Source: a bacterium
GTDB lineage: Bacteria; JAAXHH01
NCBI GenBank assembly: GCA_965262815.1
Contig: OZ253560.1
Location: 2,868,582 to 2,932,581, forward strand
DNA: 64,000 bases
Reading direction: 5' to 3'
The notes under the pieces were generated by a model, which did no database searches, had not been told where the DNA came from, and saw only the letters and a list, made by a program, of their open reading frames with translations. Of this stretch, positions 12,157 to 64,000 are shown one piece after another. Numbering within the stretch: position 1 is the first letter of the stretch; each line of letters begins with the position of its first letter. The position numbers were made by a program, and so were the translations under genes.

Positions 12157-12203
12157 CGATTATAAGGATATATGAACCATCTCCTGACAACGGAGAACCC
12201 GAT

Positions 12204-25553: not shown

Positions 25554-25709
25554 GGGGGCTCCTCCTGCCATATGCGTAAGGGCATCGGATGCGGAGGAAA
25601 GTATCTGAACTTTACTTGCGAGATATACCGGTACTTTCCGACTATGTAGATCAGATAGCTGTATTTCTTTTATTTCGAAAAGGCGGCAGTGTTGAACCGC
25701 AATTCGTGG

Positions 25710-30898: not shown

Positions 30899-31434
30899 GC
30901 AGGGATAAAACACCGGACCGGGAGTGGATAAATACTGATTTGTCTCACAAAAGATAATCCATATATTACGGTTAATCCACAACGAAACCGGGAAAAAGGA
31001 GAAGGTAGACATGCCTCCTTCCGATATCAATCCGGGCACGGCTGTTATGCTCAACGGCGCTCTACGATTCCATCGCTGCCCACCTTCGCAACGGCCTGAA
31101 CGTAGTGACCGATATCGCACATCACGACGACTACGAAATGCCCCGTGGAATACTCTATCGCTGCGCAAGCCGCATGGAAGGACCGGGCGTTTATTTCGTG
31201 GGCGTACGCTGTCCGGCCGAAGTCGTGTGGCGCCGCCGCAAAGATACCTGGCTTAAACTGCCGCCGCTATGTCCACGCCGAACCGATAGCGTATGTTGAA
31301 AAGCCGGGACGCATGACCATTTTCCAATTAACACGGACTTTGCGCAGGGGTATATTGTTGATCCTGTGTTCGTTCAACTGGTTCATGAATCCTGCACGAA
31401 TGATGGATCGAAAATCCGGAAGAGCAGCGTCCAA

Positions 31435-32514: not shown

Positions 32515-32577
32515 GGGATTTCGAGGCAACGGAGGTTTTTCGGCCGGTTGCAATCTACACACTATTGGGGAACATCG

Positions 32578-39565: not shown

Positions 39566-39683
39566 AAAGTGACCCCGGTCGATGGCACGGACTGTGATGG
39601 ATGGCCTGTCAGATGATCGCGACGGTAAATATAGCGGCACAAAACGCTTGAGACAACCCTTTGCATCGGTTAAATACCCCTAC

Positions 39684-45260: not shown

Positions 45261-46112
45261 CTATCCCCTTGAGGGCTCCGACATGCGCAACTTGGCCTTG
45301 CGCACTTCCTCCTCGAGGTGGGACTGGTACGCCAGGGGCTGTTCCAGGTGCTTCATGCGATCCGGACCCGCCGTCTGGATCATGGCTTCGCCGTACACGC
45401 TTTCGAGCCAGAACCGCGCGCCGGCGGCGATCTCGTTCTTCAGGATTTGCATATCCCGTTCGGCGAAACGGGCCGTGCAGTTGATCGTGAACATCCGGCG
45501 CCGGTCGCTACCGCCCCAGGCGCTGTGCTTGGTGTTCTGGTTGAACACGACGATGTCCCCGGGCTGTGTCTCCAGGGCCACGGCCGGCACCTCCCAGCCT
45601 TCTATACCCCAGTTCGTCGGAGATTTCCTGATCGAGGATTCAAGGGACTCCGCGTATGCGTCCCCGTACCGTTGACTGCCCGGGATCACCCGCAGCGCCC
45701 CTGTTTCCCGGGTCAATGGATCCAGGTAGAAGGCCATCTTGAAGTAAATACGGGGCGGCTTGCCGCGCATCTTGCCGGACCAGTCCGTATCAGAATGCCA
45801 TCCCGTATCGGCGACGTAGAAATTGCCGTCGCTCCCCAGGTAGACGAAATCGTCCCCGAGCAGGCTGCTGAAGATCCCGTTGACCCTGGGATCGTCCAGC
45901 AGGGCGGAGAGAATCGGGTGCTGGTCAATAAACGGTACAATGCAGGACCGGGCAGTACCGTCGTGCTGCTTGCCGTCGTGCCCGCCACCGCGTTCTGTCC
46001 ACACGGTCTCGAAGGCGTCGATGATCCCGTCGACGCGGTCCTTCAATAACCCGGGGAAACCCAGGAAGCCGAAGGTGTCCATGAACCCCAGTTGCTGTTC
46101 GGTCAGTTTCAT
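45261..46112 (-). CDS. Phytanoyl-CoA dioxygenase (PhyH) family oxygenase
   Basis: FMDTFGFLGFPGLLKDRVDG...GWHSDTDW...RVIPGSQRYG. Confidence 0.8.
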   Translation of the reverse strand: MKLTEQQLGFMDTFGFLGFPGLLKDRVDGIIDAFETVWTERGGGHDGKQHDGTARSCIVPFIDQHPILSALLDDPRVNGIFSSLLGDDFVYLGSDGNFYVADTGWHSDTDWSGKMRGKPPRIYFKMAFYLDPLTRETGALRVIPGSQRYGDAYAESLESSIRKSPTNWGIEGWEVPAVALETQPGDIVVFNQNTKHSAWGGSDRRRMFTINCTARFAERDMQILKNEIAAGARFWLESVYGEAMIQTAGPDRMKHLEQPLAYQSHLEEEVRKAKLRMSEPSRG

Positions 46113-49096: not shown

Positions 49097-50869
49097 ATGT
49101 TGCATCGAATGAAAATCCTGGTCGCGGTGTGTGGCCTGTTTCTGTCATCCATAGCGGTTCACGATGCAGAAGCGGCGTCTCGCAAGCCGGTCGTTGGTAA
49201 AAAGGGCATGGCGGTGGCCGTGGAACCCATGGCCACGAAAATCGCCGCGGATATTCTTAAGAACGGCGGAAACGCCGTCGACGCCGCCGTGGCGCTGGGA
49301 CTGGCCCTGGCGGTTACCCATCCCTCCGCCGGGAATATCGGCGGCGGTGGATTCATGGTCATTCGCATGGCCGACGGCACGGCCGTGGCGGTAGACTATA
49401 GGGAAAAAGCGCCGGGAAAAGCGCATGCCGGGATGTACCTGGACGAGCAAGGAAACCGCGCGGTGAACCCCGCCATTTCCTTTACCCGTTCTGACGGTTC
49501 GACCTTCCATCCCCCAACCAACCGCATACATCACCTGGCGATCGGCGTGCCGGGAACAGTCGCCGGATTTGCCCTGGCCCTGGAGAAATACGGCTCCATG
49601 TCCATGGTGGAAGTCATCCAGCCCGCCATCGATCTCGCGGAACAGGGCTTTATACTGACAGAGCGCATCGCCCGGGGATTAAACAGCCGCACAGCCATCT
49701 TCAACCAGATCCCCGCGAGCAAGAAGGCCATGCTCCGGGCGGACGGAGAGGATTGGCAGGCAGGCGATCGTTGGATACAGAAAGACCTGGCGGAAACCCT
49801 GAAGCTTATCGCCAGGGACGGCCACGACGGGTTCTACAAGGGCAGAACCGCCGAATTGATCGAAAAGGACATGGAGGCTGGGGGCGGGATGATAGACCGC
49901 ACCGACCTCGCGAACTACCAGGCGATCATCCGGGAACCCGTTCGCACCACCTACAGGGATGAATACGAGATCATATCCATGCCCCCGCCGAGTTCGGGCG
50001 GCATTACCATGTCGTTGATGGTCAACATACTCGAAGGCTACGACCTGGGCCGGATGGGGCATAATTCATCCAACACCCTTCACGTCATGACCGAGGCAAT
50101 GCGCCGAGCCTACGCTGACCGGGCCCGGCACCTTGGCGACGCGGACTTCGTCGAGATTCCGGAACATCTCACGACGAAGGAATACGCGGCCAAGCTACGG
50201 TCCACTATCGATCCCTTCTACGCCACGCCGAGCGAAGAGGTGGGACCGGAATTGACCTTGCCCGCGGAAAGTAACCAGACCACCCATTACTCCGTCGCCG
50301 ACCAGTGGGGCAACGCCGTTTCGAACACCTACACGCTGGAAGGCGGATACGGGTCCCATATAGTCATCGCGGGCACGGGCATGATCACCAACAACGAGAT
50401 GGGCGACTTCAATCCGCAGCCGGGAATAACCAGATCTACCGGACAGATTGGTACGGAGCCGAATCTCATCGAACCGAACAAACGCATGTTGAGCTCTATG
50501 TCCCCGACCATCGTCACGCGGAACGGCGACCTGTACCTGGTGGTGGGCAGTCCCGGGGGACGCACGATCATCAATACGACAATGCAGTTGATCCTGAACG
50601 TCATCGACCATGGCATGAATATCCAGGAAGCAGTCGACGCACCGCGAATCCACCACCAGTGGTTCCCGGACCGTCTCAGAGCCGAGAACGGAGTGGGACG
50701 CGAGACTGCGGAAGCTTTGCAGGCCAAGGGTCATGAACTAAGCAGCCGGGGTTTCGGGGGCGGATCCTACCGCCAGGGGGACGGCCACAGTATCATGGTG
50801 GACCCCGATACCGGCTACCGCCTGGGGGCGCCGGACCCCCGGATCGAGGGCGCTGCATTCGGTCATTAG
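49097..50869 (+). CDS. ggt: Gamma-glutamyltranspeptidase
   Basis: Signal peptide. Autoprocessing/nucleophile Thr in SNQTTHYSVADQWGNAVS. GGT small-subunit motifs. Confidence 0.9.
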   Translation: MLHRMKILVAVCGLFLSSIAVHDAEAASRKPVVGKKGMAVAVEPMATKIAADILKNGGNAVDAAVALGLALAVTHPSAGNIGGGGFMVIRMADGTAVAVDYREKAPGKAHAGMYLDEQGNRAVNPAISFTRSDGSTFHPPTNRIHHLAIGVPGTVAGFALALEKYGSMSMVEVIQPAIDLAEQGFILTERIARGLNSRTAIFNQIPASKKAMLRADGEDWQAGDRWIQKDLAETLKLIARDGHDGFYKGRTAELIEKDMEAGGGMIDRTDLANYQAIIREPVRTTYRDEYEIISMPPPSSGGITMSLMVNILEGYDLGRMGHNSSNTLHVMTEAMRRAYADRARHLGDADFVEIPEHLTTKEYAAKLRSTIDPFYATPSEEVGPELTLPAESNQTTHYSVADQWGNAVSNTYTLEGGYGSHIVIAGTGMITNNEMGDFNPQPGITRSTGQIGTEPNLIEPNKRMLSSMSPTIVTRNGDLYLVVGSPGGRTIINTTMQLILNVIDHGMNIQEAVDAPRIHHQWFPDRLRAENGVGRETAEALQAKGHELSSRGFGGGSYRQGDGHSIMVDPDTGYRLGAPDPRIEGAAFGH

Positions 50870-50928: not shown

Positions 50929-51948
50929 TTGAAGTTGTACGACCGTGACGCCGCGCAGGAACTGCGTCACCAGCTGGGCAGGTTCACCCGAGCACCGGTG
51001 GCCCACCTGCCCACTCCGCTACAGGATTGTCCTCGCCTTAAGCAAGCCCTCGAGGGTCCACGGATCCTCATTAAACGCGACGACATGACCGGGCTGGCCA
51101 TGGGTGGAAACAAGGCCCGCCAGTTCACCTACTCCCTGGGTCCCGCCTTGGATAACGGGTGCGATTACCTGATCCACGGCTCCGATTCCCAGTCCAACCA
51201 ATCCGCGCAGACCGCCGCCGCCGCCGCCCGGCTGGGCATGAAGTCCGTCGTGGTCATTCCGCGGGACCATCGATCCTATCCTGTTTCCGGCAACCTGCTG
51301 CTCAACCATCTCATAGCGGACCAGATCAGGTACGTCTTCCCGCTGACCGTGAAGGATGAAGTGGAAAAGCAGATCGATGAATTGAAAGCAAAAGGATCAA
51401 GACCCTACGACACGAGCCGGGACGGTGCGATCCTTCGCGCCGTGGCCTACGTGGACGCCACCCTGGAACTGTGCGAGCAGCTCGCACAGCGGGGTATCGC
51501 GCCCCGGGCCATCTATACGAGTTCCATGACCTATACCATCGTCGGGCTGGTGGTCGGACTGCGCGCCGTTTCCGCCTGCTTCAAGGCCGTCGGGCTCAAC
51601 TACTGGGTAGGGGACGACCGGGAAATGCAGGAACGCCTCGCACCCGTGGCCAACGAATGCGCCTCGGTCATCGGACTGAAACACACTTTCACGCCGGACG
51701 ATTTCGATGTCACGTGCCAGTACGCCAAACCGGATTTCGGCGAACCGTCGCGGACCAGCCTCGAAACCATGCGCCTTGTAGCGCAGACCGAGGGCATCGT
51801 ACTCGACCCGGTATACACGGCCAAGGCCATGGACGGCCTGGTCAACCACATAAGGGAAGGGCGATTCCAGACAGACGACACCGTCGTCTTCCTGCATACG
51901 GGAGGAACGCCCGCAATTTTTGCCTACGGAGACGAGCTCTTCGGCTGA
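50929..51948 (+). CDS. 1-aminocyclopropane-1-carboxylate deaminase/D-cysteine desulfhydrase family PLP enzyme (fold type II)
   Basis: TPLQD...ILIKRDDMTGLAMGGNKARQ is the GGNKxRK PLP-Lys motif. TTG start with GGAG RBS. Confidence 0.8.
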   Translation: MKLYDRDAAQELRHQLGRFTRAPVAHLPTPLQDCPRLKQALEGPRILIKRDDMTGLAMGGNKARQFTYSLGPALDNGCDYLIHGSDSQSNQSAQTAAAAARLGMKSVVVIPRDHRSYPVSGNLLLNHLIADQIRYVFPLTVKDEVEKQIDELKAKGSRPYDTSRDGAILRAVAYVDATLELCEQLAQRGIAPRAIYTSSMTYTIVGLVVGLRAVSACFKAVGLNYWVGDDREMQERLAPVANECASVIGLKHTFTPDDFDVTCQYAKPDFGEPSRTSLETMRLVAQTEGIVLDPVYTAKAMDGLVNHIREGRFQTDDTVVFLHTGGTPAIFAYGDELFG

Positions 51949-53509
51949 GCCGCTCCTGTTGGATTTTCCAACGCATCCAAGAGAGGTAACCCATATTTTG
52001 TTACGCAGATCATCCAGGAAAGCAAGCGACAAGAAAGAAAGCGAAGGCCCGACAAGACGGATAGCCAGGGAGCGGGTTCACCACGTATTCGGCCCGAACG
52101 TCTCTCCGGCCATCACCGTCAACCGCGGCGAGACCATCGTCGTGGAAACACAGGATTGTTACCGGGGTCTTCTCACGGAAGAACCCGAAACGCATCGTAA
52201 CTTCGAACAATCCGGCGGCATACCGGTAACCGGTCCCATTTACGTGGAAGAAGCCCACATCGGCGACGTCCTGTCCATACAGGTGAAGCAGATCACACCG
52301 GCGGGTACCGGCGTGTTCGCAGTGCGGCCGGAAACGGGCGTCCCCGGGCAGGAGATCCAGGATACGAAAGTACGTATACTGGAAGTGAACGACAAACAGG
52401 TCCAGCTGGATGACCGGCTGAATCTACCGGTACACCCGGTGATAGGAATCATGGGCGTGGCCGCCAAGCACGGGGAGATCGATTCCGTTTACCCGGGCAG
52501 GCACGGCGGAAACATGGACACCCTGGAAATCACGACCGGTTCCAAGATCTTCCTGCCCGTACAGGTCAATGGCGCCCTGCTGTCGCTGGGAGATGTCAAG
52601 GCCTGCGTGGGCGACGGCCAGATCGCCGGTTCGGGCGTGGAAGTCGAGGCGGAGGTCACCGTGAGAGTGGACACGCTGCCGGGCGGCCGGTTTTCCTGGC
52701 CCCGGGTCGAATCGAAGGGCGAATGGGTTACCATCACGTCCGCGTCCACGGTCGACCAGGCTGCGCGCCTGGCAATCACCGAGATGGTGAAATGGATCTC
52801 ACAGGACAAGGGACTTGATTTCGATACGGCCTACGCGCTGGTCAGTCTTGGCGGCGGACTCCACGTCAGCCAGTGGGGAAATCCGCTCATTACCGCGCGC
52901 ATGGTGTTTCCAAAGCGGTTGATCAGCAAGATCAAATCGCAACCTACCGCTTCCGGCCAGCTCAATTTCCGTTCTCTGCCCCCCGCGGCCAACGGCGACA
53001 CCGGTGGCGAGACCGTGGCGGCCGAAGCCGAACAACCCGCATCCCGGTCATCCCGAAAATCCGGCTCGAGCCGGTCGCAGCGCTCATCGGGCAGGTCCCG
53101 GCAGACGGGGAGCCGGAGAGGTACGCGCCAACGGTCGAACGGCGCCGCGGACCCCGCCAGCGACGACGGCACCGTGAAAGAGGCGGCCCAGGAGAACAGC
53201 GACGCAAAGGAAAGCCGGGTCACCGCGAATGGTAAAGGACAAGAGAACAAGGCAGGCAGGAACGGCAAAGGCAAGGATAAGGCCGTGCAGCAGGACAAGT
53301 TGCCCGAGCAGGGAGAACCGACCGCCGTCCAACCTGAAACCGCTCCCGCGGCAAGGGTAGAACCCGATGCCGTGACTACGCCGTCGGCCGACCCGTCAAG
53401 TGCTAAGGATGTACGCAAGGACGATTTGAAAACCGAAAACGCCAAACCGGTAGAAGAGGTCCGCAAGCCCACCTACGGGAGAAGGCAGCGTACGGTCCGC
53501 AGGACCTAG
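51920..53509 (+). CDS. Acetamidase/formamidase (FmdA_AmdA) family protein with a roughly 200-aa intrinsically disordered RS/KE-rich C-terminal tail
   Basis: Core VHHVFGPNVSPAITVNRGETIVVETQDCYRG...GDVKACVGDGQIAGSGVE. True start may be TTG at about 51998 (AGAGAGG RBS), after the upstream stop. The tail is SRSSRKSGSSRSQRSSGRSRQTGSRRGTRQRSNG...KGKDKAVQQDK... Confidence 0.7.
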   Translation: MPTETSSSAEPLLLDFPTHPREVTHILLRRSSRKASDKKESEGPTRRIARERVHHVFGPNVSPAITVNRGETIVVETQDCYRGLLTEEPETHRNFEQSGGIPVTGPIYVEEAHIGDVLSIQVKQITPAGTGVFAVRPETGVPGQEIQDTKVRILEVNDKQVQLDDRLNLPVHPVIGIMGVAAKHGEIDSVYPGRHGGNMDTLEITTGSKIFLPVQVNGALLSLGDVKACVGDGQIAGSGVEVEAEVTVRVDTLPGGRFSWPRVESKGEWVTITSASTVDQAARLAITEMVKWISQDKGLDFDTAYALVSLGGGLHVSQWGNPLITARMVFPKRLISKIKSQPTASGQLNFRSLPPAANGDTGGETVAAEAEQPASRSSRKSGSSRSQRSSGRSRQTGSRRGTRQRSNGAADPASDDGTVKEAAQENSDAKESRVTANGKGQENKAGRNGKGKDKAVQQDKLPEQGEPTAVQPETAPAARVEPDAVTTPSADPSSAKDVRKDDLKTENAKPVEEVRKPTYGRRQRTVRRT

Positions 53510-53541
53510 AGCCACTGACTGGCACTGGGTCGCGTATCCTG

Positions 53542-53563
53542 GGACGGCTGACTCACGCCGTCC
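53542..53563. terminator. 7-bp perfect stem hairpin (GGACGGC-loop8-GCCGTCC) between convergent genes; possible bidirectional terminator
   Basis: Seen directly between the formamidase stop (53509) and the Minf_1886-like stop (53600). No U-tract. Confidence 0.3.
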
Positions 53564-53599
53564 TGGAGCCGGGGCGCCGCAGCAGGACAGGTTCGTCTT

Positions 53600-53989
53600 T
53601 CAGCGGCGCTTCGTCTCCACTTCTATCTGGAATTCGGTCTCGAAGGCCGTGGTGAAATCGTATACCTCGTCGAAATCCTCGATGGCGTCCTCTTCGGTTT
53701 TTCGAAGTAGTCCCTCGTTGACGAGATTGAAGACGATATCGCCGAAGTGGCGGGTTTTCGTGATGTTCCACTCTTCGAAAACCAGTCTCACCGATATGCC
53801 GAACCGCTCGATGGCGAAGTCCCGGATGCCCAGGGACAGTTCCTTCCCCGTGATATGCCTTCGGGCGGATAGTTTCCCCACCGTATACGAAACGGCTTCC
53901 ATGACGAAAAGGTAGGCCCGCCGTGGAAAGCGGCCGTCCTTTTCCAGGATGCTGTCCAGTACTTCCTGGGGATCCTGTTCTTCCGACAC
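53600..53989 (-). CDS. Minf_1886-family conserved hypothetical protein (about 130 aa)
   Basis: AYLFVMEAVSYTVGKLSARRHITGKELSLGIRDFAIERFG...HFGDIVFNLVNEGLLRKTEEDAIEDFDEVYDF matches this family's conserved core as I recall it. GTG start with GGAGAG RBS. Last gene of a minus-strand operon. Confidence 0.55.
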   Translation of the reverse strand: MSEEQDPQEVLDSILEKDGRFPRRAYLFVMEAVSYTVGKLSARRHITGKELSLGIRDFAIERFGISVRLVFEEWNITKTRHFGDIVFNLVNEGLLRKTEEDAIEDFDEVYDFTTAFETEFQIEVETKRR

Positions 53990-54034
53990 GTCACACTCTC
54001 CGCGCTTGCCTGAAGTCGATGAACGCCAACCCGG

Positions 54035-56029
54035 TCACCAGGTCTGGACGGGATGCCCGGCCTGTGGAAACCACTGGGTATCCGCCACGTAGGACAGGAA
54101 TACGCCGAGCACGAAGGCGACCAGCATGCCCATTGCGGCCGGTATGGCCTTTCGGTAAAGCTGGATGCCTCCCAGCCTAAGTAACAGGGCCTTAACGAGC
54201 CACACTACGAAAACCGAGAAGACGGAACTGGCCATGCCGGGCGTCAATACTACGGTGAATCCTATGGGATGCAATGCCCACCAGGAAAACCGATGATGGG
54301 CCTGGATGAGCAGCGTAGTAATCACGCCGCCGATGGCCATAAACCAGAATTCCGCACCCGTAATCGCCTGCTCGTTGTTGATCCATTTCACGAGATTGTC
54401 GTAGGGCAGCTTGCTCCCCGTGTTGAAGGCGGGCTCTAGAAAGTTCGACGCCCCGCTGTGTGTATATCCCAGGTACACGGTGTACGCCACCGCCACGATG
54501 ATGCTGAGGGCGAGCACCCCGGTGATCGCACGGAACGCCCCCTTTCCCGTTCCCCCCATTTCATCGTCCACCTTGGCGATGTGTCCCATGGAACACATAC
54601 CGAGGGTCCGCCAGTTGCGTGCATAGGCGTTGCCGATGGCCAGGTTGGTCAGGTCCTGTGTACCAATGCTGCCGGATCCGATGACGGCCACGGTGAAATC
54701 ATGGGTTTCGAAGGGCAGGTCCAGGAACACGATGCCCGTTTCCGCCACGATGCGGGTCACACCAACGAACATGATCAACAACGACCCCATCATGAAGGCA
54801 ATGATGCCAAGGGACATCCCCGAAGCGTACAGCCAGCAGACGATATACGTTACGCCCCCAAGCACGCCCAGCATGGCCATGCGATAGGAGAAGAACTCCT
54901 TCGAATCGTCCACATGGGGGGCTCTTCCAATCGCCTTCATGAACACGTTCTTCAGATGGCGCCGCGCGGCCCACAGGGCGAAAAGGGAGAAGATGAGAAA
55001 CCCCCCGGAATGCTGCGATTTGACGACCGCGAAGGCCTGGGGCACGCCAAGCCGGATCATGATGCCCTGCTGAATGGTCATAAGGACGAAGAAAATCCAG
55101 ATGCTGAACAGGACATTCAGATTGGTAAAATAGCCGACCCCGGCTACCAGAAAATTGAACTTTACGGGTATGGCGGGAAAGGACCTGGCCAGGACAAAGT
55201 TGAAATTGTGCATGGGGCCTATGGGGATTGGCCCGACCCAGTTGAAGAAGCTGATGATGTTCCAGAGGAAGATGAACAGCGTTATGCCGAAGGCGTACCA
55301 GAACAGTTTCGACTGCATCACGGCGGGAAGGGCCCGGCGTCCCGTCCCTTCCTCGATCAGGATCAACGGGATCTGCGCCAGCGGAAAGGTCAGCCTTTCG
55401 TGTTCCACCCACTGCTTGCGCAGCATGACCATGGCCGATGCGCCGACGACGAAGATCGCGAGAAAAAAGGTGATCCACCAGAAGAGAGGTATCGACCAGG
55501 TGTTGCGCAACAGCCCAAGGATAGAGGGACTGCTTTCCGGTACACCCTCGAAAAACCAGGATATGGCCCGGTGCTCGTTGGAAATGATGAGCCATGAGGG
55601 CAGGTACTTGAAGAATAGTTCCGCCCACTGGTTCTCCGTTGTTGCATAGTAGTGAGGCGCGGTGATGGCCGAAATCCAGTAGGAACTGAAGGGCCAGGCG
55701 GGAATGGTCGAAGCCGTGAAGACCAGGAAAAAAACGACGATGAGTTCATACCGGTTCAGGACCCAGGCCGGCCAGAAGAACTTCATCAGGGGATTGAAGA
55801 CCAGCAGGACCAGCATGAAGGGGAACAGCGCGGCGACGGGTAGATGGGTCAGGCTGATATAGGAGGACCCGGTGACATACGCCGCGTGGATCGTCCATAT
55901 ATTCAGGAGGACGGACATGACGACACCGATAAACAGTGCCTTTTTTGTCATACCCGACTTGAGGGTCGCCCTGGATCCTCCGCTTTCATCTCTACCGGTC
56001 TGCGGGGATGTCGTGCTGGAAAGGGACAT
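54035..56029 (-). CDS. Large polytopic membrane protein (about 14-16 TM), unassigned family, putative transporter; paralog of 59929..61911
   Basis: 664 aa, hydrophobic segments throughout, no recognisable family motif. Shares blocks with the paralog (SKEFFSYRMAMLG/REEFFSYRTAVFG; NAYARNWRTLGM/NAFARNWRTFTM; RIVAETGIVFLDLP/RIVAEAGLVAMDLP). Confidence 0.7.
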   Translation of the reverse strand: MSLSSTTSPQTGRDESGGSRATLKSGMTKKALFIGVVMSVLLNIWTIHAAYVTGSSYISLTHLPVAALFPFMLVLLVFNPLMKFFWPAWVLNRYELIVVFFLVFTASTIPAWPFSSYWISAITAPHYYATTENQWAELFFKYLPSWLIISNEHRAISWFFEGVPESSPSILGLLRNTWSIPLFWWITFFLAIFVVGASAMVMLRKQWVEHERLTFPLAQIPLILIEEGTGRRALPAVMQSKLFWYAFGITLFIFLWNIISFFNWVGPIPIGPMHNFNFVLARSFPAIPVKFNFLVAGVGYFTNLNVLFSIWIFFVLMTIQQGIMIRLGVPQAFAVVKSQHSGGFLIFSLFALWAARRHLKNVFMKAIGRAPHVDDSKEFFSYRMAMLGVLGGVTYIVCWLYASGMSLGIIAFMMGSLLIMFVGVTRIVAETGIVFLDLPFETHDFTVAVIGSGSIGTQDLTNLAIGNAYARNWRTLGMCSMGHIAKVDDEMGGTGKGAFRAITGVLALSIIVAVAYTVYLGYTHSGASNFLEPAFNTGSKLPYDNLVKWINNEQAITGAEFWFMAIGGVITTLLIQAHHRFSWWALHPIGFTVVLTPGMASSVFSVFVVWLVKALLLRLGGIQLYRKAIPAAMGMLVAFVLGVFLSYVADTQWFPQAGHPVQTW

Positions 56030-56106
56030 GGAAACTTCGATTTCCTATGGCGTTCCGTCGTTGCGGCGGACGGATCCGATTCACGGCCACTCGAAGGCCG
56101 CGCGGC

Positions 56107-57477
56107 CTAATCCCAGGTGTTCAACCCTTTCCGGCCGAATGCCGGAAGGAGTACAAAGTGGTCTTCCGTTTCCTTCATCCTGTGCAAAAGGAGGTCATGG
56201 TGCCGTATGATCTCCTCCCGGTACGCGGGATCGTCCAGGAGATTCCGCTGTTCCCAGGGATCATTCGCCAGGTCGAAAAACTGCCATGGACCGCCGCCGT
56301 GGTTGTCTCCGCGAACGGTGTACTTGTACCGGGCGGTCCGGAATCCGCGCCACACCCACTCGTAGAAGGCCATGCCCTGACGCAGTTCAGCTACGAATTC
56401 GAGCATCACCCCTTCCCTTTTCAAATGATCGGCGCCGCCATGTATAAGCGGGGTGAGGTCGGTTCCCGGCAGGTCGTCTCTCGGCTTCACTCCAGCCAGT
56501 CCCAGGATGGTGGGGAATAGATCCTCGGTGCAGACCGGATCCTGGATCGTGTCGCCGGCCCGCTCCGGACACCTGGGATCCGCCACGATGAGGGGAATGC
56601 CCGTCGACTCCTCGTAAGGCCACTGCTTTCCCCGAAGTCCATGGGCGCCGCCGAGTTCGCCGTGATCAGAAAGAAACAGGACAACGGTGTCACCCTGGAG
56701 TCCGGTCCGTAACAGGAAAGCGCCAAGTCGCCCCATGTTCCAGTCCAGGTTCTCCACCATGGCGTAGTAACGCTTCCGGTTGAGCATGATCCGTTCCAAT
56801 TCCCCGGTTTCGGCAGCCTCGACGTTGGGAGGCAGTACGATGTCCATCGCCTCCCAGGTGCGTTGAAGGGTCTCCGGCGCCTCGAATGGATCGTGGGGCG
56901 GCTCGACGGAGATCACCATGCAGAAGGGACGGGATGGATCCCGGTATTCCAGGTTGTCCATGGCCAGGTCGAAAAGCCCGTCGGTCTGGTACCCTTCAAT
57001 CGGTCGCGGCGTCGGGTCGTCGTCCTCGAAATAAAACGTATCGAAGGGACCGTTCCTGAGCTCGAAACCCAGCCATTTCTCCCAGCGGCCCCGGTAGGCT
57101 TTCTTTACGGGCGTCCGCCCGCACTGGCGGGCCGACCCCATGCGGCCGTGACCGCCGTCCAGGTGCCATTTCCCCGTGTATATCGTCTCGTACCCCGCCT
57201 CGTTGAATTCGTCCGCAAGGGTCCGCTCAGCAGGAGACATCCTGTATTCGATCCCCGGGACCTTCCGGTCATGGGCGTACAGGCCCGTCATGAAGGAAAA
57301 GCGGAAGGGGACGCAGATGGGGCAGGTCGAACTGGCGTTTTCGAAGCGCACGCCCCGGTCGGCGAGGGCGTCTACGTGGGGCGTAACGATGTTGGGATCG
57401 CCGTAGGTGGACAGGGCCTGGCGACGCAGCTGGTCACTCAGCACGATCAGAATATTGGGCGTTGAAACGGCCTTCAT
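56107..57477 (-). CDS. Formylglycine-dependent sulfatase, no signal peptide (cytoplasmic; choline-sulfatase-like)
   Basis: NILIVLSDQLR...SSTCPICVPFRFSFMTG is the CxPxR motif. Sulfatase core. GGACGAGG RBS. Confidence 0.85.
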   Translation of the reverse strand: MKAVSTPNILIVLSDQLRRQALSTYGDPNIVTPHVDALADRGVRFENASSTCPICVPFRFSFMTGLYAHDRKVPGIEYRMSPAERTLADEFNEAGYETIYTGKWHLDGGHGRMGSARQCGRTPVKKAYRGRWEKWLGFELRNGPFDTFYFEDDDPTPRPIEGYQTDGLFDLAMDNLEYRDPSRPFCMVISVEPPHDPFEAPETLQRTWEAMDIVLPPNVEAAETGELERIMLNRKRYYAMVENLDWNMGRLGAFLLRTGLQGDTVVLFLSDHGELGGAHGLRGKQWPYEESTGIPLIVADPRCPERAGDTIQDPVCTEDLFPTILGLAGVKPRDDLPGTDLTPLIHGGADHLKREGVMLEFVAELRQGMAFYEWVWRGFRTARYKYTVRGDNHGGGPWQFFDLANDPWEQRNLLDDPAYREEIIRHHDLLLHRMKETEDHFVLLPAFGRKGLNTWD

Positions 57478-57663
57478 CCAGGTTACCTCGTCCTGTCTCC
57501 GCGGGATGAATCAGTCTTAAATGGACCCGGCCGGCGCCTGGTGTGATGGCCGGGGTAATTGGGTTGTGTATCGCCGGGTGGCGTACTATATTGCCGGTCA
57601 AGAGAGTAACGAATCACCAACCACAAATCAACTGGATTTCCCATCGGCAACCGGTGCTTCCCC

Positions 57664-58521
57664 ATGAGCAAACCCGATGACCTGGATATCTACCTCTTCG
57701 ACCTGCAGGGCTTCATCCACATGAAGCAGGCCCTGACCGGGGCAGAGGTGACTGAACTGAACGCCTGCCTGGACGAAATCCCGCCCCTGTCTCCCGGCGA
57801 ATGGCACGGTTGCGTCCATGCCCATACCTATGGCACCGTGGACGGACTGAACCTGCAACAGATTTACGAGGCGGGCGCTCCCTTTGAAGCCCTGATCGAT
57901 CATCCATCCTGGATCGATAAGCTAAAGCACTTCGTGGGCGGGGAAGGGACGTTCGACTACAGCCACGGACCGCTGTTCATCGACGAAAACCTCGCCAATT
58001 TCCGGGAACCGGGCGAAGCGATCGGACTGCATTCCGGGGGATTCCCCCGGATCATGCGCAATGGATTCCGCTACGATGGCGGCCGGTTCATGTGCGGACA
58101 GATCAACGTGCTGATCGCCCTGACCGACATCGGTCCGGGGGACGGCGCCACCATGGTCATTCCCGGTAGCCACAAGTCCAACTTCATCCATCCCGAATAC
58201 GCCCGCCACGCCATGAAGCCGAAGGGGGCCTCCGTGGAAGGCATCTCCGCTTCCGTCGAATTGTTCATGGAAGCCGGCGACGCCCTACTGTTCGTGGATG
58301 GCATTTCCCACGGTTCGGCCACCCGCCGAAACGCGGGAACGCGGCGTATCGTGGTCTACCGGTACGGACCGTCCTGGGGCAACTTCCGCCACGGGTACCA
58401 ACCGTCACCCGAATTGCTGGACCGCCTGACCCCCGATCGCAGGAAGATCGTCTCTCCCCAACACGCCGCGCCTTCCGGGGCGCCTTACGGCAGTACTGCA
58501 TCAGGTCAGGGCGGGAAGTGA
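57664..58521 (+). CDS. Phytanoyl-CoA dioxygenase (PhyH) family oxygenase
   Basis: FDLQGFIHMKQAL...MVIPGSHKSNF... double-stranded beta-helix. 3' end overlaps the convergent sulfatase by 16 nt. Confidence 0.75.
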   Translation: MSKPDDLDIYLFDLQGFIHMKQALTGAEVTELNACLDEIPPLSPGEWHGCVHAHTYGTVDGLNLQQIYEAGAPFEALIDHPSWIDKLKHFVGGEGTFDYSHGPLFIDENLANFREPGEAIGLHSGGFPRIMRNGFRYDGGRFMCGQINVLIALTDIGPGDGATMVIPGSHKSNFIHPEYARHAMKPKGASVEGISASVELFMEAGDALLFVDGISHGSATRRNAGTRRIVVYRYGPSWGNFRHGYQPSPELLDRLTPDRRKIVSPQHAAPSGAPYGSTASGQGGK

Positions 58522-59867
58522 AACCGGCGGTCCAGCCGCCGTCTGAGCTCTCCTACCGTTTCCGGCCGGTCCGCCGCCACGTTTTCCTTTTCTTCAGGAT
58601 CATTCTTCAGGTCGTATAGTTCCGTCTCGCCCGTCTCGTGGGAGATCAGCTTGTATTCCGCCGTACGGACCAGCCTGAACTGACGCAGCGCGCTGGCTCC
58701 TTCCTCCCGGTGGGTAGACCGTTCCCCGGTGAGCACGGCGCCGAAGTCCATCGCGTCGAGGCCGTCCTGGGCCGGCAGTCCAGCCAGGGCGCACAGGGTG
58801 GGGTTGACGTCGATCAGTTCCACAAGGGCGTCGGAGGTTTGTCCACCCGGTATGCCCGGTCCGGCGGCGATCAGGGGCACACGCAGGGCCGCCTCGTAGG
58901 GCAGGGACTTGGTGTACATGCCGTGATCGCCCAGCATCTCCCCGTGGTCGCTGGCAAATACGACGTAGGTATCGTCCCCCATGCCTCGACGTTCTACGGC
59001 CTCGATGATCCGGCCCACCTGGTCGTCGATGAGTTCAGTGGCGGCGCAGTACTGGCGACGGGTGACCGCGACCTCATCGTCGGACAGGTCGCGACGCCGC
59101 GCGTTGACCCAGTCCGGTTTCCCTTCTCTCGCGCTGCGCACGGCAGGCGGCACCTCCGCGTCCCGGTAGCGGTCGGCGTAAGCCGCGGGTGGATCGAAGG
59201 GGTCGTGGGGACCTACGAAACTCACAAACAGGTGCCAGGGGTAGTCGTCCGGCACGGCTTCGATCCAATCGACGGCGCGACGTCCGATGTAAATGTCCTC
59301 GAAGGCCTCGAGGGGCAGGACCGAGTCGTGGGACGCGCCTTCGATCCATCCCTTCGCTCCCCGCGCCGCGTAGTCCGCCCAAAAGCCTTCGAAGAGCCCC
59401 TGATCCCGCAGCCAGAATCCGTACGGTCCCCGGGGTTCGTCCGCCATGCCGGCGTGCATCTTGCCCTCGCACTCCACGGGATGGGTAAATCCCCATCCGA
59501 ATACCCGGGGACGGTCGCCGTGAAGGCCGTTGTAGGAATCCGGCTTGGCGAGGTCGAGTTTACCCACGCAGCCTACGCGGTACCCCGCATCCCGCAGGCG
59601 GGCGTAATAGGGCGTGACGTGCCGGGGAAGGTAGCAATTGTTGTCCAGGCAACCCAGCCGCGCGGGCTGGTATCCGCTGGCCAGGCCGATGCGCGCGGGC
59701 GCGCAGACCGGGGCGTTGGTGATGCATTGCGTGAAGCGGATCCCGCGTTGCGAGAGCCGGTCCAGGTTTGGTGTATTCAAGAATGACGCCCCCGCCGAGG
59801 ACAGGTAGTCGTGGCGGTGCTGGTCGTCCATGATGAACAACAGGTTGGGGCGTTTGGTACCTGTCAT
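58506..59867 (-). CDS. Formylglycine-dependent sulfatase, no signal peptide
   Basis: NLLFIMDDQHRHD...ITNAPVCAPARIGLASG is the C(A)PxR motif. GCGAGG RBS. Confidence 0.85.
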   Translation of the reverse strand: MTGTKRPNLLFIMDDQHRHDYLSSAGASFLNTPNLDRLSQRGIRFTQCITNAPVCAPARIGLASGYQPARLGCLDNNCYLPRHVTPYYARLRDAGYRVGCVGKLDLAKPDSYNGLHGDRPRVFGWGFTHPVECEGKMHAGMADEPRGPYGFWLRDQGLFEGFWADYAARGAKGWIEGASHDSVLPLEAFEDIYIGRRAVDWIEAVPDDYPWHLFVSFVGPHDPFDPPAAYADRYRDAEVPPAVRSAREGKPDWVNARRRDLSDDEVAVTRRQYCAATELIDDQVGRIIEAVERRGMGDDTYVVFASDHGEMLGDHGMYTKSLPYEAALRVPLIAAGPGIPGGQTSDALVELIDVNPTLCALAGLPAQDGLDAMDFGAVLTGERSTHREEGASALRQFRLVRTAEYKLISHETGETELYDLKNDPEEKENVAADRPETVGELRRRLDRRFHFPP

Positions 59868-59928
59868 GGTTTAGCCTCGCATGTGTTTCGGGTTATCCCG
59901 ATCGTTCTTCCATGTTCTCGGGCAGGTT

Positions 59929-61911
59929 TCAGTTGATGAAGGATTCGAACTGGTGGGGCGTGGCCGGAAACCAGAGGCTGTCCACCAGGAACGAAAGCGC
60001 CATACCCACGACGTAGCCCACCAGGATGCCGAGGAAGAGGGGTTGCACCTTGCGGTACAGCGCTCCCCCGCCCAGGCGCAGCAGGATCACCTGGATGAGC
60101 CAGGCCAGCAGGAACGGCAGGAACATGAACCGGACGGTGTCCGCGGCCACGGCGACGAGTCCGATGGGATGCAGCGGCCACCAGAGAAAGAGGAAGCGCC
60201 CCAGGATCATCAGCATGTACAGGGCGACGCCGTTGCCGAAAAATACCAGTTCAAGTCCCGAAACACTACTCGCGCTGCTGTTCCACTGCATGATGGTATT
60301 GTAGAAGAACGGCACGAGATCGCCGGGCTTGGATAGCAGGTTGTCGGCGCCCACGGCGTAACCCGCGCTGATGTAATAATACAGCGAAGCGACGACGCTC
60401 ACGGCGAAGGACAGGCAGATCCACAGGAAGAGGTGCCGGGTGGCCGGCTGCATCCAGCGCTGGAGATACGCGGTGTGGGACAGCCCGATCATCGTGAAAG
60501 TCCGCCAGTTCCGCGCAAAGGCGTTCGTCATGCCCAGGGCGGTGATGGTGGAAGAGTTGAGGTTGTCGGCGCCGATGATGCCCGCGGTAAACACGTTGGC
60601 GTTCACCGGCAGGTCCATGGCGACGAGGCCCGCCTCGGCGACGATCCTGGCCATGCCGAGGTATACGATGAAGAGGACGGCGAGCAGGGCCAGGCTGACC
60701 GGCAGCGACATGCCGATGCTGTAGAGCCAGCCCAGCAGGTAGATCAATCCGAAGATCATTCCGAACACCGCTGTTCGGTAGGAGAAGAACTCCTCCCGGT
60801 CATCCACCGCCGGATCCTTACGGAACGCCCGCCTGCCCACGGCGGCCAGGTGATGCCGGGCCATCCAAAGTCCCCAAACCACCAGGGCGATCAGCGCGCC
60901 GATGGACTGCGTGCCCACCAGGCCGGTGGGTGACATCGTCGTTGCCGCCGTAACCCCGAGCATGTTCAGTACGCCGCGTTGCAGCGTCGTGAGCAGGAGG
61001 AAGAAGCAAAGGCTGAACAGGATCTCGGCATTGACAAAAAAGGCGAAACAGAGCACGAAGACATTCAGACGGATGGGAAGATCGGGGATCGACGGGTGCA
61101 CCTTCACGTACACCAGGTCCGGTCCCATGATGGGAATCGGTGAAACAAAGCCCCAGTAGGAAACGATATTCCAAAGCACGACGGCCAGCGACAGGACGAC
61201 GCCGATCCGGAAGGCGTTCGTGCGGACCATGGGCGGCCTGTCTTCGTCCTTTTGCAATCCCATCAGGTTGAGCGCCACCTCGCCCAGGGGGAAACGCAGC
61301 CTTTCGTGGCTGACCCACTGCTTCCTCAGGATGACCACGATGCACGCGCCGGTCCACATGAGGGCGGCAAAACACGACATCCACCACAGCAGGGGCGAGA
61401 TCCAGGCCATCCACGGGATGTCGTACCCGGGGCCGGCCCCCTCGTAGAAAATCCGTACCGCGTCGGTCTTGTCGCTGATCACCAGCCACGCGGGCAGCGT
61501 GTCGAAGAAGGTTTCCGCCCAACGGATTTCGGGACTCGCGTGATAGAAGGGTCCGGTAATGATGGAGACCAGGTACCGTGTCATGCCCCAGTCGGGTACC
61601 ATCGAACCGATCAGGCCCATGGCGAAAATCACGACCAGTTCGGAGGTTTTCAGGGTGTGCCTGGGCGCCAGGATCTTCAGCAGGACGTGGGGTCCCAGGA
61701 TCAGCACGAGGAAGGGGATAAGCAGCGCCGAGGGCAGATGGGCGTAGGTGACGTAGTTGTACCCGGCGTGGTCGGCGGCGAACTGTCCCCAGACGGCCAC
61801 CACGGCGGAAAGCCCTAGACCGATGATCCCGGCCCGCAGGGTTACGGCCGTTGATCCGCGGTTTCGAGGTGGTTCCGGGGAAATGGAATACCTCCGTTCA
61901 TGTTGCGGCAC
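59929..61911 (-). CDS. Large polytopic membrane protein, paralog of 54035..56029
   Basis: 660 aa, GTG start, same conserved blocks as its paralog. Lies between a PhyH gene and a sulfatase in one minus-strand operon. Confidence 0.7.
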   Translation of the reverse strand: MPQHERRYSISPEPPRNRGSTAVTLRAGIIGLGLSAVVAVWGQFAADHAGYNYVTYAHLPSALLIPFLVLILGPHVLLKILAPRHTLKTSELVVIFAMGLIGSMVPDWGMTRYLVSIITGPFYHASPEIRWAETFFDTLPAWLVISDKTDAVRIFYEGAGPGYDIPWMAWISPLLWWMSCFAALMWTGACIVVILRKQWVSHERLRFPLGEVALNLMGLQKDEDRPPMVRTNAFRIGVVLSLAVVLWNIVSYWGFVSPIPIMGPDLVYVKVHPSIPDLPIRLNVFVLCFAFFVNAEILFSLCFFLLLTTLQRGVLNMLGVTAATTMSPTGLVGTQSIGALIALVVWGLWMARHHLAAVGRRAFRKDPAVDDREEFFSYRTAVFGMIFGLIYLLGWLYSIGMSLPVSLALLAVLFIVYLGMARIVAEAGLVAMDLPVNANVFTAGIIGADNLNSSTITALGMTNAFARNWRTFTMIGLSHTAYLQRWMQPATRHLFLWICLSFAVSVVASLYYYISAGYAVGADNLLSKPGDLVPFFYNTIMQWNSSASSVSGLELVFFGNGVALYMLMILGRFLFLWWPLHPIGLVAVAADTVRFMFLPFLLAWLIQVILLRLGGGALYRKVQPLFLGILVGYVVGMALSFLVDSLWFPATPHQFESFIN

Positions 61912-61917
61912 ATTATG

Positions 61918-62745
61918 TTACTCGATCCAGGGATCCATACGGAACAACTTGCGGCCCAGCGGCGTCAGCATGGCCAGTGCCTCGGAACTCATGGACCGGT
62001 CGGGTCCCGGGGCGAGACGGGCCTCTTCGCCCTCCAGGGGATACAGGCGGGTGAAATGGGCGACCCTGGGCACACTTCGGTGATTGGCGCTGGCGGCGTG
62101 GGGCATCAGGTGGTGCATGAGCACGAAGTCGCCCGCGTCCCCTTTGACCTCCACCGACGGCGGAAAATCAACGACGTGGGTCCATGTGTCGTTGCGCGAT
62201 AGTCCTTCCGGTTCGTTGAGCATGACGTCCCTCACCCTGTTCGGCGCGCCGGGAATAACGTGGATGCCGCCGCCGTTTTCTTCGACGTGAGACAGGTAGT
62301 AGCATCCGCCGATGCCGATACCGTGGCGCAGGAATGGAGGGTTCAGATCCTCCGGTCCGCCCGGCCGCGCGTCCAGGTGCAGGTTTTGAATGCGCCCTTC
62401 GCGCCCTTTATCCCGCAGGGTAATCCCCACAGAGCCGTCTCCCACCCGGATGCAGTCGGTTTCGAGGATTTCGGCCGCGGCCCGGTAGAGCCCTTCGTTT
62501 TGAAGCAGGGGAAGCAGCGCCGGACTGTAGAAACTGTGGTTTCCGTCGGTGTGCATGGGTTTGATCCTGCCGCAGTACGCGATATAGTGGTCCGGCAGGG
62601 AAAGGTCGCGGGGGATCAAATCAAGAATGGCGTTGCGGGCGGTTTCCACCGTAGCGGCGTCCAGGGTACCCTTCAGCACCAGGTAGCCGTCGGACCAGAA
62701 TTGCTCCAGTTGTTCGCCGGTCAGGTAACGGGGGGTCTCGTTCAT
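61918..62745 (-). CDS. Phytanoyl-CoA dioxygenase (PhyH) family oxygenase
   Basis: FWSDGYLVLKGTL...IHVIPGAPNR...VLMHHLMPHAAS. First gene of the minus-strand PhyH-membrane-sulfatase operon. Confidence 0.75.
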   Translation of the reverse strand: MNETPRYLTGEQLEQFWSDGYLVLKGTLDAATVETARNAILDLIPRDLSLPDHYIAYCGRIKPMHTDGNHSFYSPALLPLLQNEGLYRAAAEILETDCIRVGDGSVGITLRDKGREGRIQNLHLDARPGGPEDLNPPFLRHGIGIGGCYYLSHVEENGGGIHVIPGAPNRVRDVMLNEPEGLSRNDTWTHVVDFPPSVEVKGDAGDFVLMHHLMPHAASANHRSVPRVAHFTRLYPLEGEEARLAPGPDRSMSSEALAMLTPLGRKLFRMDPWIE

Positions 62746-62791
62746 GGAACGCTAATAAACATTTTAGAATTAAAAAATGCGGGTACAAAAC

Positions 62792-63205
62792 TTAAGGGCA
62801 GGTGTCTTGTCTCAACAGTTTTTTGTGTTTCGTGGTTTGGTAAACACTCCCGTTAACAACAGATTTAAAGTCAGTATGCAGATTGGTGTCGCCCGAGACT
62901 AACAGCTTAACCTTGGCTATCCTGGCCAAGGCGATTATATCAGGGTCGTCAGATTTCAGTTGAGGTAATGATCTTTTATCCTGTTCAACTTCTCTTGCTG
63001 GATATTGTTTCAGTTTTCCATTTTCTCTGAATTGATCAAACTGCTTTCTCATCTTGTCGTGTTTTTCCAATTCTTGTTTCAATTTTAATGTCGGTGAGTA
63101 CACCATCTTACCATTTTTGCTCATCCATTTTCTTACGAGTTCCATATCTTGGTTTTCAGGATTTACATACTCACTAAATTTGTTGGTATCTAAAATAAGA
63201 CACAT
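62792..63205 (-). CDS. PIN-like small protein (putative nuclease/toxin component) in low-GC islet
   Basis: 137 aa. N-terminus MCLILDTNKF is the canonical first acidic PIN motif. Later acidic residues lie in DPDIIALARIA and LVSGDTNLHTDF. Starts 10 nt downstream of the ATPase stop. Confidence 0.5.
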   Translation of the reverse strand: MCLILDTNKFSEYVNPENQDMELVRKWMSKNGKMVYSPTLKLKQELEKHDKMRKQFDQFRENGKLKQYPAREVEQDKRSLPQLKSDDPDIIALARIAKVKLLVSGDTNLHTDFKSVVNGSVYQTTKHKKLLRQDTCP

Positions 63206-63215
63206 AAATGTACTT

Positions 63216-64000
63216 TCAATTTGTAAAACCTAGTAACCTATCCGATTCATTTATGAAAAAGTTTCTATAGCCAGGTGGAGCACCTATAAGATTGCCTTGT
63301 TTGTCGAAACTTATATTGTGAACTCTCACTCGGTTGCCAACAGGTTCTAAGTATATAAGTGAGACATCCTGTGGTGCGATTACACCATTCATGATTTCAA
63401 TTCGTGCTCTATTTACCATAGCATCACTATGAGTCTCAATCACATATCTGTGCTTCTTGCTTTTAATGGTTTCAATCAACATTGAAGACAGTTCAGCTTG
63501 GCCTTTGGGATGTAAATGTACCTCTGGCTGCTGCATTAAGAAAACCGTCTTAGAGTATGCGTTGTAGATTCGGACAAGGATCGGAAGAATTTGACTCACT
63601 CCGTATCCCACATCAGTGAAATTTACTTTAGGTCCTTTTACCTTAATCTGTAGTTGATATGGATCGCCAATTGACTTCCCCAGTCTTCTGACATTTACAT
63701 CGGTAAACAAGCCAGATGATTTTCCAAACTTAATTAAACTGTCTCTTAGTTCACCCCATCTATCCTTATTCGCTCTTGACATATTCATAATCAACATCGG
63801 GATGTCGATTCCTTCTGGGTTCTCTTCCTCTTTAAACGGATTGTAGGTGCGTTGAGGTTTAGAGCGCACCGGAGCAAAACTGACTATATCAGGTTGGTCA
63901 AACCTACTATTGCTGAAGAACAAGGAACTAGGTTTTATATCGAGTAAATTCGAAATAGCATTTCTGAATTTCTCAAAAACTCTAAAGTTCTTGGGTACTG
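63216..64000 (-). CDS. ABC-type (AAA_21/AAA_15-like, DUF3696-type C-terminus) ATPase, C-terminal part; N-terminus beyond window end
   Basis: VFLMQQPEVHLHPKGQAELSSMLIE is a Walker B/D-loop. IETHSDAMVNR is an H-loop. Walker A lies outside the window. Locally low GC. Confidence 0.6.
   Translation of the reverse strand, partial: VPKNFRVFEKFRNAISNLLDIKPSSLFFSNSRFDQPDIVSFAPVRSKPQRTYNPFKEEENPEGIDIPMLIMNMSRANKDRWGELRDSLIKFGKSSGLFTDVNVRRLGKSIGDPYQLQIKVKGPKVNFTDVGYGVSQILPILVRIYNAYSKTVFLMQQPEVHLHPKGQAELSSMLIETIKSKKHRYVIETHSDAMVNRARIEIMNGVIAPQDVSLIYLEPVGNRVRVHNISFDKQGNLIGAPPGYRNFFINESDRLLGFTN

Follow-up and report, generated by a model that had tools for sequence, protein, structure and literature searches.

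We describe a 64,000-nucleotide stretch of bacterial DNA (positions 2,868,582 to 2,932,581 of contig OZ253560.1, assembly GCA_965262815.1; hereafter the window) in which two genes for polytopic membrane proteins of the DUF6785/DUF6784 family, DUF_A and DUF_B, each share an operon with a different Cys-type S1 sulfatase gene whose product has no signal peptide. The predicted fold of DUF_A matches that of the Yellow Stripe 1 transporter HvYS1, a member of the OPT superfamily, and sulfatases recur as operon partners of DUF6785 genes in other genomes. DUF_A and DUF_B may thus be OPT-fold secondary importers, each feeding a distinct small organosulfate to its partner cytoplasmic sulfatase, a reading to which we give even chances. 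For the family as a whole, the best explanation of the structural modeling is that DUF6785/DUF6784 constitutes a large, uncharacterised bacterial family and a sequence-divergent branch of the OPT/Yellow-Stripe fold.

Organization of the locus

The window has 60% GC and contains ~55 genes in 64 kb, seven of which form the region of interest:

61918-62745 (-), PhyH_up: PhyH-family Fe(II)/2-oxoglutarate oxygenase (PF05721); opens operon 1, 6 bp upstream of DUF_B
59929-61911 (-), DUF_B: 660-aa polytopic membrane protein (DUF6785+DUF6784); putative OPT-fold secondary transporter
58506-59867 (-), Sulf_B: Cys-type S1 sulfatase without signal peptide (PF00884+SGSH_C); 61 bp downstream of DUF_B
57664-58521 (+), PhyH_mid: HygX-like Fe(II)/2-oxoglutarate oxygenase with a relocated carboxylate ligand (PF05721)
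56107-57477 (-), Sulf_A: Cys-type S1 sulfatase without signal peptide (PF00884+SGSH_C); opens operon 2
54035-56029 (-), DUF_A: 664-aa polytopic membrane protein (DUF6785+DUF6784); predicted OPT/Yellow-Stripe fold
53600-53989 (-), Minf_1886-family small protein (TIGR04138); operon 2, 45 bp downstream of DUF_A

The coordinates and strands of all seven open reading frames (ORFs) agree with a preliminary description of this DNA, and its sulfatase, PhyH and Minf_1886 labels are backed by Pfam and NCBIfam models (PF00884, PF05721, TIGR04138). Because the intergenic gaps are short, we read the minus-strand genes as two operons: PhyH_up-DUF_B-Sulf_B (operon 1; gaps of 6 and 61 bp) and Sulf_A-DUF_A-Minf_1886 (operon 2; gaps of 77 and 45 bp). 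PhyH_mid lies between them, divergent from Sulf_A at a distance of 186 bp and convergent with Sulf_B, with which its 3' end overlaps by 16 bp. Genes called independently in L082, a genome 98% identical, gave the same map (an exact-sequence look-up of DUF_A returned no record, and P0001, a protein 98% identical to it, was used in its place). No fewer than six related genomes or contigs keep the gene order (L001, L045, L048, L049, L051/L082 and L083); the position of PhyH_up is kept in L045, L048, L049, L051, L082, L083 and L084. The Minf_1886 protein scores 129.5 bits against TIGR04138 (E 6.7e-38), where the cut-off is 60; in seven loci (cluster 25) such a gene immediately follows the DUF_A orthologue on its strand, after a median gap of 46 bp. 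Promoter and terminator scans of positions 53000-63500 returned sites no more frequently than in shuffled sequence.

DUF6785/DUF6784 proteins and their predicted OPT fold

Both membrane proteins were said to show no recognisable family motif; they in fact match Pfam DUF6785 (PF20581, E ~1e-103) and DUF6784 (PF20580, E ~1e-18), which together cover their full length. DUF_A scores 348 and 67.4 bits against the two models and DUF_B 346.3 and 65.3 bits (E 3e-103 and 6e-18), where the cut-offs are 25 and 26.4. Among the 120 homologues listed, all contain DUF6785 and all but one contain DUF6784. With a 41-member profile, 6,794 cluster representatives (clustering at 50% identity) were retrieved at E<=1e-3, of which 2,248 also passed E<=1e-30. 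The named homologues come from metagenome-assembled genomes of Latescibacterota, Zixibacteria, Gemmatimonadota and Planctomycetota, several of them with isolate names (APA, IRC, RHO, SB) that presumably denote sponge-metagenome bins. The Pfam entries give no function, and a literature search found no paper naming DUF6785 or DUF6784, by name or accession, which bears out the earlier view of an uncharacterised transporter family; to this the present analysis adds a predicted fold and a linkage to sulfatases.

An AlphaFold2 model of DUF_A built on the family alignment reached a pLDDT of 85.7 and a pTM of 0.85. Searching the whole PDB with Foldseek returned 7wsr and 7wst, both HvYS1, as the sole matches (E 2e-9, TM-score 0.63-0.68). 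HvYS1, a solved OPT-superfamily member, was likewise picked out by a second structure search. The model appears to have the same fold as HvYS1, including its Yellow Stripe core, its scaffold and its inverted repeats, at 11-15% identity in the structural alignment. Thus the candidate importers of the preliminary description, for which only a loose OPT resemblance had been noted, have a predicted fold that matches Yellow Stripe 1 alone, and matches it strongly. DUF_A and DUF_B are, on the strength of this model, very probably OPT-fold transporters. The OPT superfamily (TC 2.A.67) comprises importers of peptides, glutathione and metal chelates. HvYS1 itself is a proton-coupled, elevator-type importer with inverted repeats, and its fold was without structural homologues when published (PMC9691689). 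DUF6785/DUF6784 shares this fold with no detectable sequence relationship, and because the relationship is structural only, we regard the family as an OPT-fold relative rather than a member of the OPT sequence family. The two also differ in setting: the DUF6785/DUF6784 family is bacterial, represented here by the four phyla named above, and its genes neighbor sulfatases, GGT and sugar-type oxidoreductases, and not metal-chelate genes.

DUF_A and DUF_B are 35% identical over their full length (E 8e-131), clear paralogues as had been proposed. In the family tree, DUF_B occupies its own clade, sister to a clade whose genes stand in operons of the order sulfatase-x-x-DUF6785, and DUF_A falls in another; the two are old, separately placed paralogues. 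At least 4-5 DUF6785 paralogues per genome are present in Latescibacterota/PAUC34f-like bacteria (for example OZ241838.1 and OZ252103.1), with separate paralogues occupying separate catabolic operons. Distant paralogues are also often paired or tripled, in tandem or divergently (L015, L017, L021, L022, L024, L025, L031-L033, L039, L042, L046, L054, L055, L059, L063, L132 and L139). As HvYS1 is a homodimer (PMC9691689), such pairs make heterodimeric carriers conceivable, and if DUF6785 proteins are indeed importers, the frequency of tandem pairs would point to them.

The partner sulfatases

Sulf_A (PF00884, E 1.4e-45) and Sulf_B (PF00884, E 4.5e-41) both contain an SGSH_C domain and are 29% identical to one another (E 3e-43). 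Their active-site motifs, CVPFRFSFMTG and CAPARIGLASG respectively, each present the complete CxPxRxxxx(T/S)G signature of Cys-type S1 sulfatases, with the cysteine at residue 55 in both. Even with the ORF taken at its longest, the catalytic domain of either protein starts at residue 7; a domain starting this early, together with a CxPxR cysteine at residue 55, excludes a signal peptide, so that the earlier claim of sulfatases without signal peptides held on direct reading of the ORF starts. DUF-linked sulfatases elsewhere have this cysteine at residue 49-58, where the motif was found and the 5' end of the ORF is not over-extended, which likewise leaves no space for a signal peptide. A literature search on cytoplasmic sulfatases brought up irrelevant papers only.

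The nearest solved relative of Sulf_A is the YidJ-like 2qzu (3e-42); for Sulf_B, 4upi (4e-50) comes nearest, together with two choline sulfatases, 6fny and 7pth. Solved relatives of Sulf_A and Sulf_B are scattered at similar scores over YidJ-like, S1_30, choline, glycosaminoglycan and carrageenan sulfatases and enzymes resembling phosphonate monoester hydrolases. The two window sulfatases score 182 and 227 bits against the choline-sulfatase model and 209 and 252 bits against the arylsulfatase model, far under the equivalog cut-offs of 433 and 481. General Pfam scans of the window genes turned up no FGE-type or radical-SAM family; two metagenomic relatives, L148 and L140, do encode FGE homologues in the vicinity of DUF6785 (matches to solved FGEs at E 4e-32 and 2e-22).

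A third S1 sulfatase gene, at 10517-12304(-), has the motif CIPARRTLMTG and no DUF6785 neighbor. Its ORF is over-extended, and the likely start, MPSRPHVLLV, leaves no signal peptide. It adjoins an S1/P1 nuclease gene and a TauE sulfite-exporter gene (8858-9697).

Sulfatases as operon partners of DUF6785

We collected 79 genome and 80 metagenome loci around DUF6785 genes, in which ORFs were called, clustered and searched with hidden Markov models. An operon partner was defined as a gene at most three genes away, on the same strand and with gaps below 200 bp, and the DUF6785 genes were collapsed into 34 subgroups at 60% identity. Sulfatase proved to be the commonest neighboring family of DUF6785, sharing its strand with the nearest DUF6785 gene in 33 of 34 cases (first set of 80 loci), and an operon partner in 5 of the 34 subgroups (~15%), as compared to at most two for every other family. 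The proposed association of sulfatase and membrane protein thus stands, in that sulfatase is the most recurrent DUF6785 operon partner.

We distinguished ~8 DUF6785-sulfatase architectures (D, DUF6785; S, sulfatase; M, Minf_1886):

D-S and S-D-M (both in the window)
D-luciferase-like-PhyH-DMFA2_C-metallophosphoesterase-S
S-[MFS]-TIM barrel-SDR-D
S-D
D-ceramidase-like-S-D
DUF3604-S-GGT-D-D-D
D-DUF3604-S

Since sulfatases from different architectures are only 23-32% identical to one another, the pairing has evolved or persisted on many occasions, with a variety of enzymes. Two architectures are retained over considerable distances, down to ~70% protein identity and over a GC range of 0.45-0.64: S-TIM barrel-SDR-D to ~70% (GC 0.46-0.64) and S-D to 68-77%.

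Possible import of organosulfates or peptides

The observations set out above (how the genes are ordered, which family they belong to, the fold match of the model, sulfatases without signal peptides and the recurrence of sulfatases in DUF6785 operons) leave transport activity, its direction, its energy coupling and the class of substrate to be inferred. By analogy with HvYS1, a DUF6785/DUF6784 protein would take up sizeable organic solutes by proton-coupled secondary transport with an elevator mechanism. Each of DUF_A and DUF_B would share its transcript with a cytoplasmic Cys-type S1 sulfatase of its own; the imported organosulfate may be a sulfated sugar or oligosaccharide, or else a sulfated peptide or amino-acid conjugate, and the partner sulfatase would remove its sulfate in the cytoplasm after import. 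A wider form of this proposal, that DUF6785/DUF6784 is an unrecognised, sequence-invisible bacterial branch of the OPT/Yellow-Stripe fold from which some members were recruited as dedicated importers of sulfated metabolites, we put forward tentatively, as less likely than not. Organosulfate import cannot in any event be the function of the whole DUF6785 family, because only ~15% of its subgroups have a sulfatase partner.

A number of observations weigh against organosulfate import by DUF_A and DUF_B. Firstly, most DUF6785 subgroups have no sulfatase close by, and raw neighbor counts that gave a ~7-fold enrichment of sulfatases fell to ~2.4-fold once orthologous loci were dereplicated: sulfatases then account for 4.3% of the genes one to three positions from DUF6785 and for 1.8% of those six to nine positions away, a modest difference, and occur in 5 of 31 subgroups in the nearer interval and 3 of 28 in the farther one. 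The genomes concerned are moreover rich in sulfatases, as is known of PAUC34f/Latescibacterota and Poribacteria (PMC7081726). Secondly, the pairing of DUF_B with a sulfatase is not obligatory, because the syntenic Tara contig MDTE01008031.1 (6944-13433; L084) keeps a DUF_B 80% identical to ours without Sulf_B; there, PhyH_mid comes 62 bp after DUF_B. Thirdly, low-GC operons of the S-TIM barrel-SDR-D type (L091-L093 and L110) have an extra MFS gene directly after the sulfatase, and this MFS carrier could be the real organosulfate importer of the S-x-x-D operons. Fourthly, other DUF6785 genes neighbor GGT, M32 carboxypeptidase and sugar-type oxidoreductase genes, which indicate other substrates. 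Fifthly, all three window sulfatases read as cytoplasmic, including the one without a DUF6785 neighbor, so a cytoplasmic location is not specific to the pairing. Sixthly, assigning a substrate through the nearest solved sulfatases failed, as the matches scatter over many S1 subfamilies. Lastly, a sequence-level tie to OPT was rejected: Pfam OPT (PF03169) gave no match at E<=10 among 41 family members and none at E<=0.01 to the window membrane proteins, and the 41-sequence family profile gave no match at E<=10 to any PDB sequence.

Several of these points are shared by the main rival explanation, in which DUF6785 proteins, in the manner of OPT transporters, import peptides or glutathione-like gamma-glutamyl compounds, the sulfatases are served by other transporters and their adjacency is incidental. 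Peptides, glutathione and metal chelates are what the OPT superfamily imports (TC 2.A.67; PMC9691689), and a GGT homologue lies directly upstream of DUF6785 on the same strand in seven loci (L042, L046, L054, L055, L059, L132 and L148), one of which has the operon DUF3604-sulfatase-GGT-D-D-D-aminotransferase (L132). An M32 carboxypeptidase gene overlaps the start of a DUF6785 pair in L031, and the ~2.4-fold enrichment, the MFS gene within the same operon and the absence of Sulf_B from the Tara contig all suit this explanation as well. The window has a GGT gene four genes from DUF_A (49097-50869(+), with a signal-peptide-like N-terminus); it is, however, on the opposite strand with three genes in between. 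Incidental adjacency also sits poorly with sulfatase still being the top operon partner (5 subgroups, against at most 2 for any other family) and with its recurrence in ~8 unrelated pairings, closely spaced and in the same orientation. Taken together, we consider peptide or gamma-glutamyl import unlikely as an account of these loci.

PhyH oxygenases and the question of a duplicated trio

The preliminary description read the two operons as the same gene trio repeated and assigned the PhyH enzymes a step in the pathway. We examined this in the form of a tandem-duplicated transporter-sulfatase-PhyH module, all three components acting in sequence on one organosulfate class. A PhyH gene does lie beside both DUF6785-sulfatase pairs, in positions kept in close relatives, and PhyH genes occur as well in D-luciferase-like-PhyH-x-x-S and, convergently, in S-D. 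The repeat is nonetheless overstated: PhyH_up and PhyH_mid are barely similar (E 0.026) and essentially unrelated; the order and orientation of genes differ between the units, operon 1 running PhyH-DUF6785-sulfatase and operon 2 sulfatase-DUF6785-Minf_1886; DUF_A and DUF_B belong to separate clades; and, orthologues set aside, neither Sulf_A nor Sulf_B has the other as its nearest paralogue. A recent tandem duplication was rejected on these grounds (35% and 29% identity, unlike gene order, separate clades and no reciprocal closest-paralogue relation). Synteny of the trio is conserved in close relatives, with DUF_A at least 80% identical, and not across divergent genomes.

The two oxygenases themselves are well supported as family members. 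PhyH_up matches PF05721 (E 1.8e-08; 35.4 bits, where 22 is the cut-off), and its H-L-D and distal histidine align with the metal triad of the family, the distal histidine and the arginine being invariant; a sequence search gave no solved relative of PhyH_up. PhyH_mid matches PF05721 at E 7e-17 (62.8 bits, same cut-off) with the metal motif H123-S-G125 ... D212-x3-H216 plus an arginine, and H123, S124, G125, D212, H216 and R227 are invariant across 21 homologues from several phyla. Its nearest solved protein is the orthosomycin orthoester synthase HygX (4xc9, E 2.4e-11; structures 4XC9/4XCA), in which the carboxylate ligand is relocated to give HxG...Ex3H (PMC13374393). The two share the unusual metal motif HxG...(E/D)x3H, but only ~100 residues align and PhyH_mid lies outside any antibiotic gene cluster. 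PhyH_mid was also considered as an Fe(II)/2-oxoglutarate halogenase, on account of H-S-G in place of HxD, and rejected, since HygX has the same HxG and D212-x3-H216 is invariant.

HygX acts on a carbohydrate substrate (PMC13374393), which favors a place for PhyH_mid in the processing of an organosulfate; its distribution argues otherwise. The PhyH_mid subfamily numbers 2,893 homologues, environmental and widespread, with members 66-88% identical over Latescibacterota, Gemmatimonadota, Zixibacteria, Handelsmanbacteria and Chloroflexota. So strong a conservation indicates that PhyH_mid carries out one important reaction, and the neighbors of its close homologues (~70% identity) in other phyla are unrelated, with neither a sulfatase nor a DUF6785 gene adjoining. 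Nine PhyH genes lie in the 64 kb, ~16% of the genes, the window PhyH proteins being only 16-21% identical to PhyH_mid. Besides the two in the region of interest they are:

4085-4858 (-), PhyH gene
24777-25571 (-), PhyH gene
32548-33366 (+), PhyH gene
33396-34334 (+), PhyH gene
38732-39640 (-), PhyH gene
41224-42009 (-), PhyH gene
45261-46112 (-), PhyH gene

In related genomes, PhyH genes make up a similar share of the genes near DUF6785 and far from it (5.8% at 1-3 genes away and 3.6% at 6-9, dereplicated). The window thereby resembles Poribacteria, where an unexplained PhyH expansion has been reported (PMC3909097). These counts, with the unlinked PhyH_mid homologues, give no support to PhyH as a specific pathway step; the PhyH neighbors are probably not obligate pathway members, and they form part of a genome-wide expansion. 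A single trio acting on one organosulfate class is accordingly improbable, and the locus is neither a new kind of system nor a duplicated three-gene pathway.

The alkaline-phosphatase superfamily is known for its promiscuity. That the sulfatase-like enzymes cleave phosphonate or phosphate esters and the membrane proteins import organophosphorus compounds is nevertheless very improbable: the solved relatives of Sulf_B include phosphonate monoester hydrolases (2vqr, 2w8s, 4upk) and 4upi, which resembles both sulfatases and phosphonate monoester hydrolases, sub-threshold NCBIfam PehA matches occur, the D-luciferase-like-PhyH-x-x-S architecture holds a metallophosphoesterase and a sulfatase-fold protein without a CxPxR match, and some PhyH proteins act on phosphonates (PMC3909097), but Sulf_A and Sulf_B score better against the arylsulfatase and choline-sulfatase models, contain the complete CxPxRxxxx(T/S)G signature, and have true sulfatases as most of their top solved relatives.

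Comparison with known importer-sulfatase systems

Import followed by cytoplasmic desulfation, as we propose for DUF_A and DUF_B, has precedents. In Pseudomonas atsRBC-atsA and in Sinorhizobium betC, which serves the utilisation of choline-O-sulfate, uptake of a sulfate ester precedes its hydrolysis by a Cys-type sulfatase without a signal peptide, and both loci use ABC-type transporters. The window loci would follow the same import-then-hydrolyse logic, with the difference that the candidate importer is an OPT-fold secondary carrier; choline sulfatases are among the solved relatives of Sulf_B. As none of the three window sulfatases has a signal peptide, their substrates must cross the inner membrane.

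Sulfated organic matter, including algal and animal glycans and sulfated lipids and metabolites, forms a large pool of carbon and sulfur in the sea. If the proposal is correct, Latescibacterota/PAUC34f-type marine and sponge-associated bacteria would have an organosulfate route in which the substrate is first imported and then desulfated in the cytoplasm, distinct from both the periplasmic SusCD-based route of Bacteroidota and the ABC-based ats/bet systems. A family of ~6,800 clusters thereby receives a first functional hypothesis, that of OPT-fold carriers, and the operon data offer a testable substrate class for a subset of it. Confirmation would give the OPT superfamily, mainly associated with eukaryotic uptake of peptides and metal chelates, a bacterial branch with possibly anionic sulfated substrates, and would improve the annotation of "hypothetical membrane proteins" in marine metagenomes.

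Other genes in the window

A pyridoxal phosphate enzyme encoded at 50929-51948(+) has the D-cysteate sulfo-lyase CuyA as its closest match (E 7e-78), though its 262 bits fall short of the equivalog cut-off of 450, and a TauE/SafE sulfite exporter is encoded at 8858-9697(+). Together they hint at organosulfonate metabolism beside sulfate-ester metabolism. Glycan-degrading genes include a NAGLU-like gene (GH89) at 25906-28743(-), a weak GH32-like gene at 29504-31168(-) and a BNR/sialidase-like gene at 31366-32514(+), which would fit a lifestyle on animal-type or sulfated glycans.

The acetamidase/formamidase-family protein encoded at 51920-53509(+) has a strongly basic, low-complexity C-terminal tail of ~200 residues in which Ser, Arg and Gly abound (SRSSRKSGSSRSQRSSGRSRQTGSRRGTRQRS); in its L045 orthologue the tail is longer still and repeat-rich. 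At the right end of the window, a low-GC islet (62792-64000(-); 47% versus 60% GC) holds a 137-aa ORF without a family match, whose sequence (ILDTN ... SGDTN) looks PIN-like, and an AAA ATPase gene cut by the window end, whose best matches are the candidate defence ATPases NsnB, PDC-M55A, HEC-03B and AriA. Since the closest relative (L082) has DUF4325 and PIN genes at this position, we take the islet to be a variable defence or toxin-antitoxin spot.

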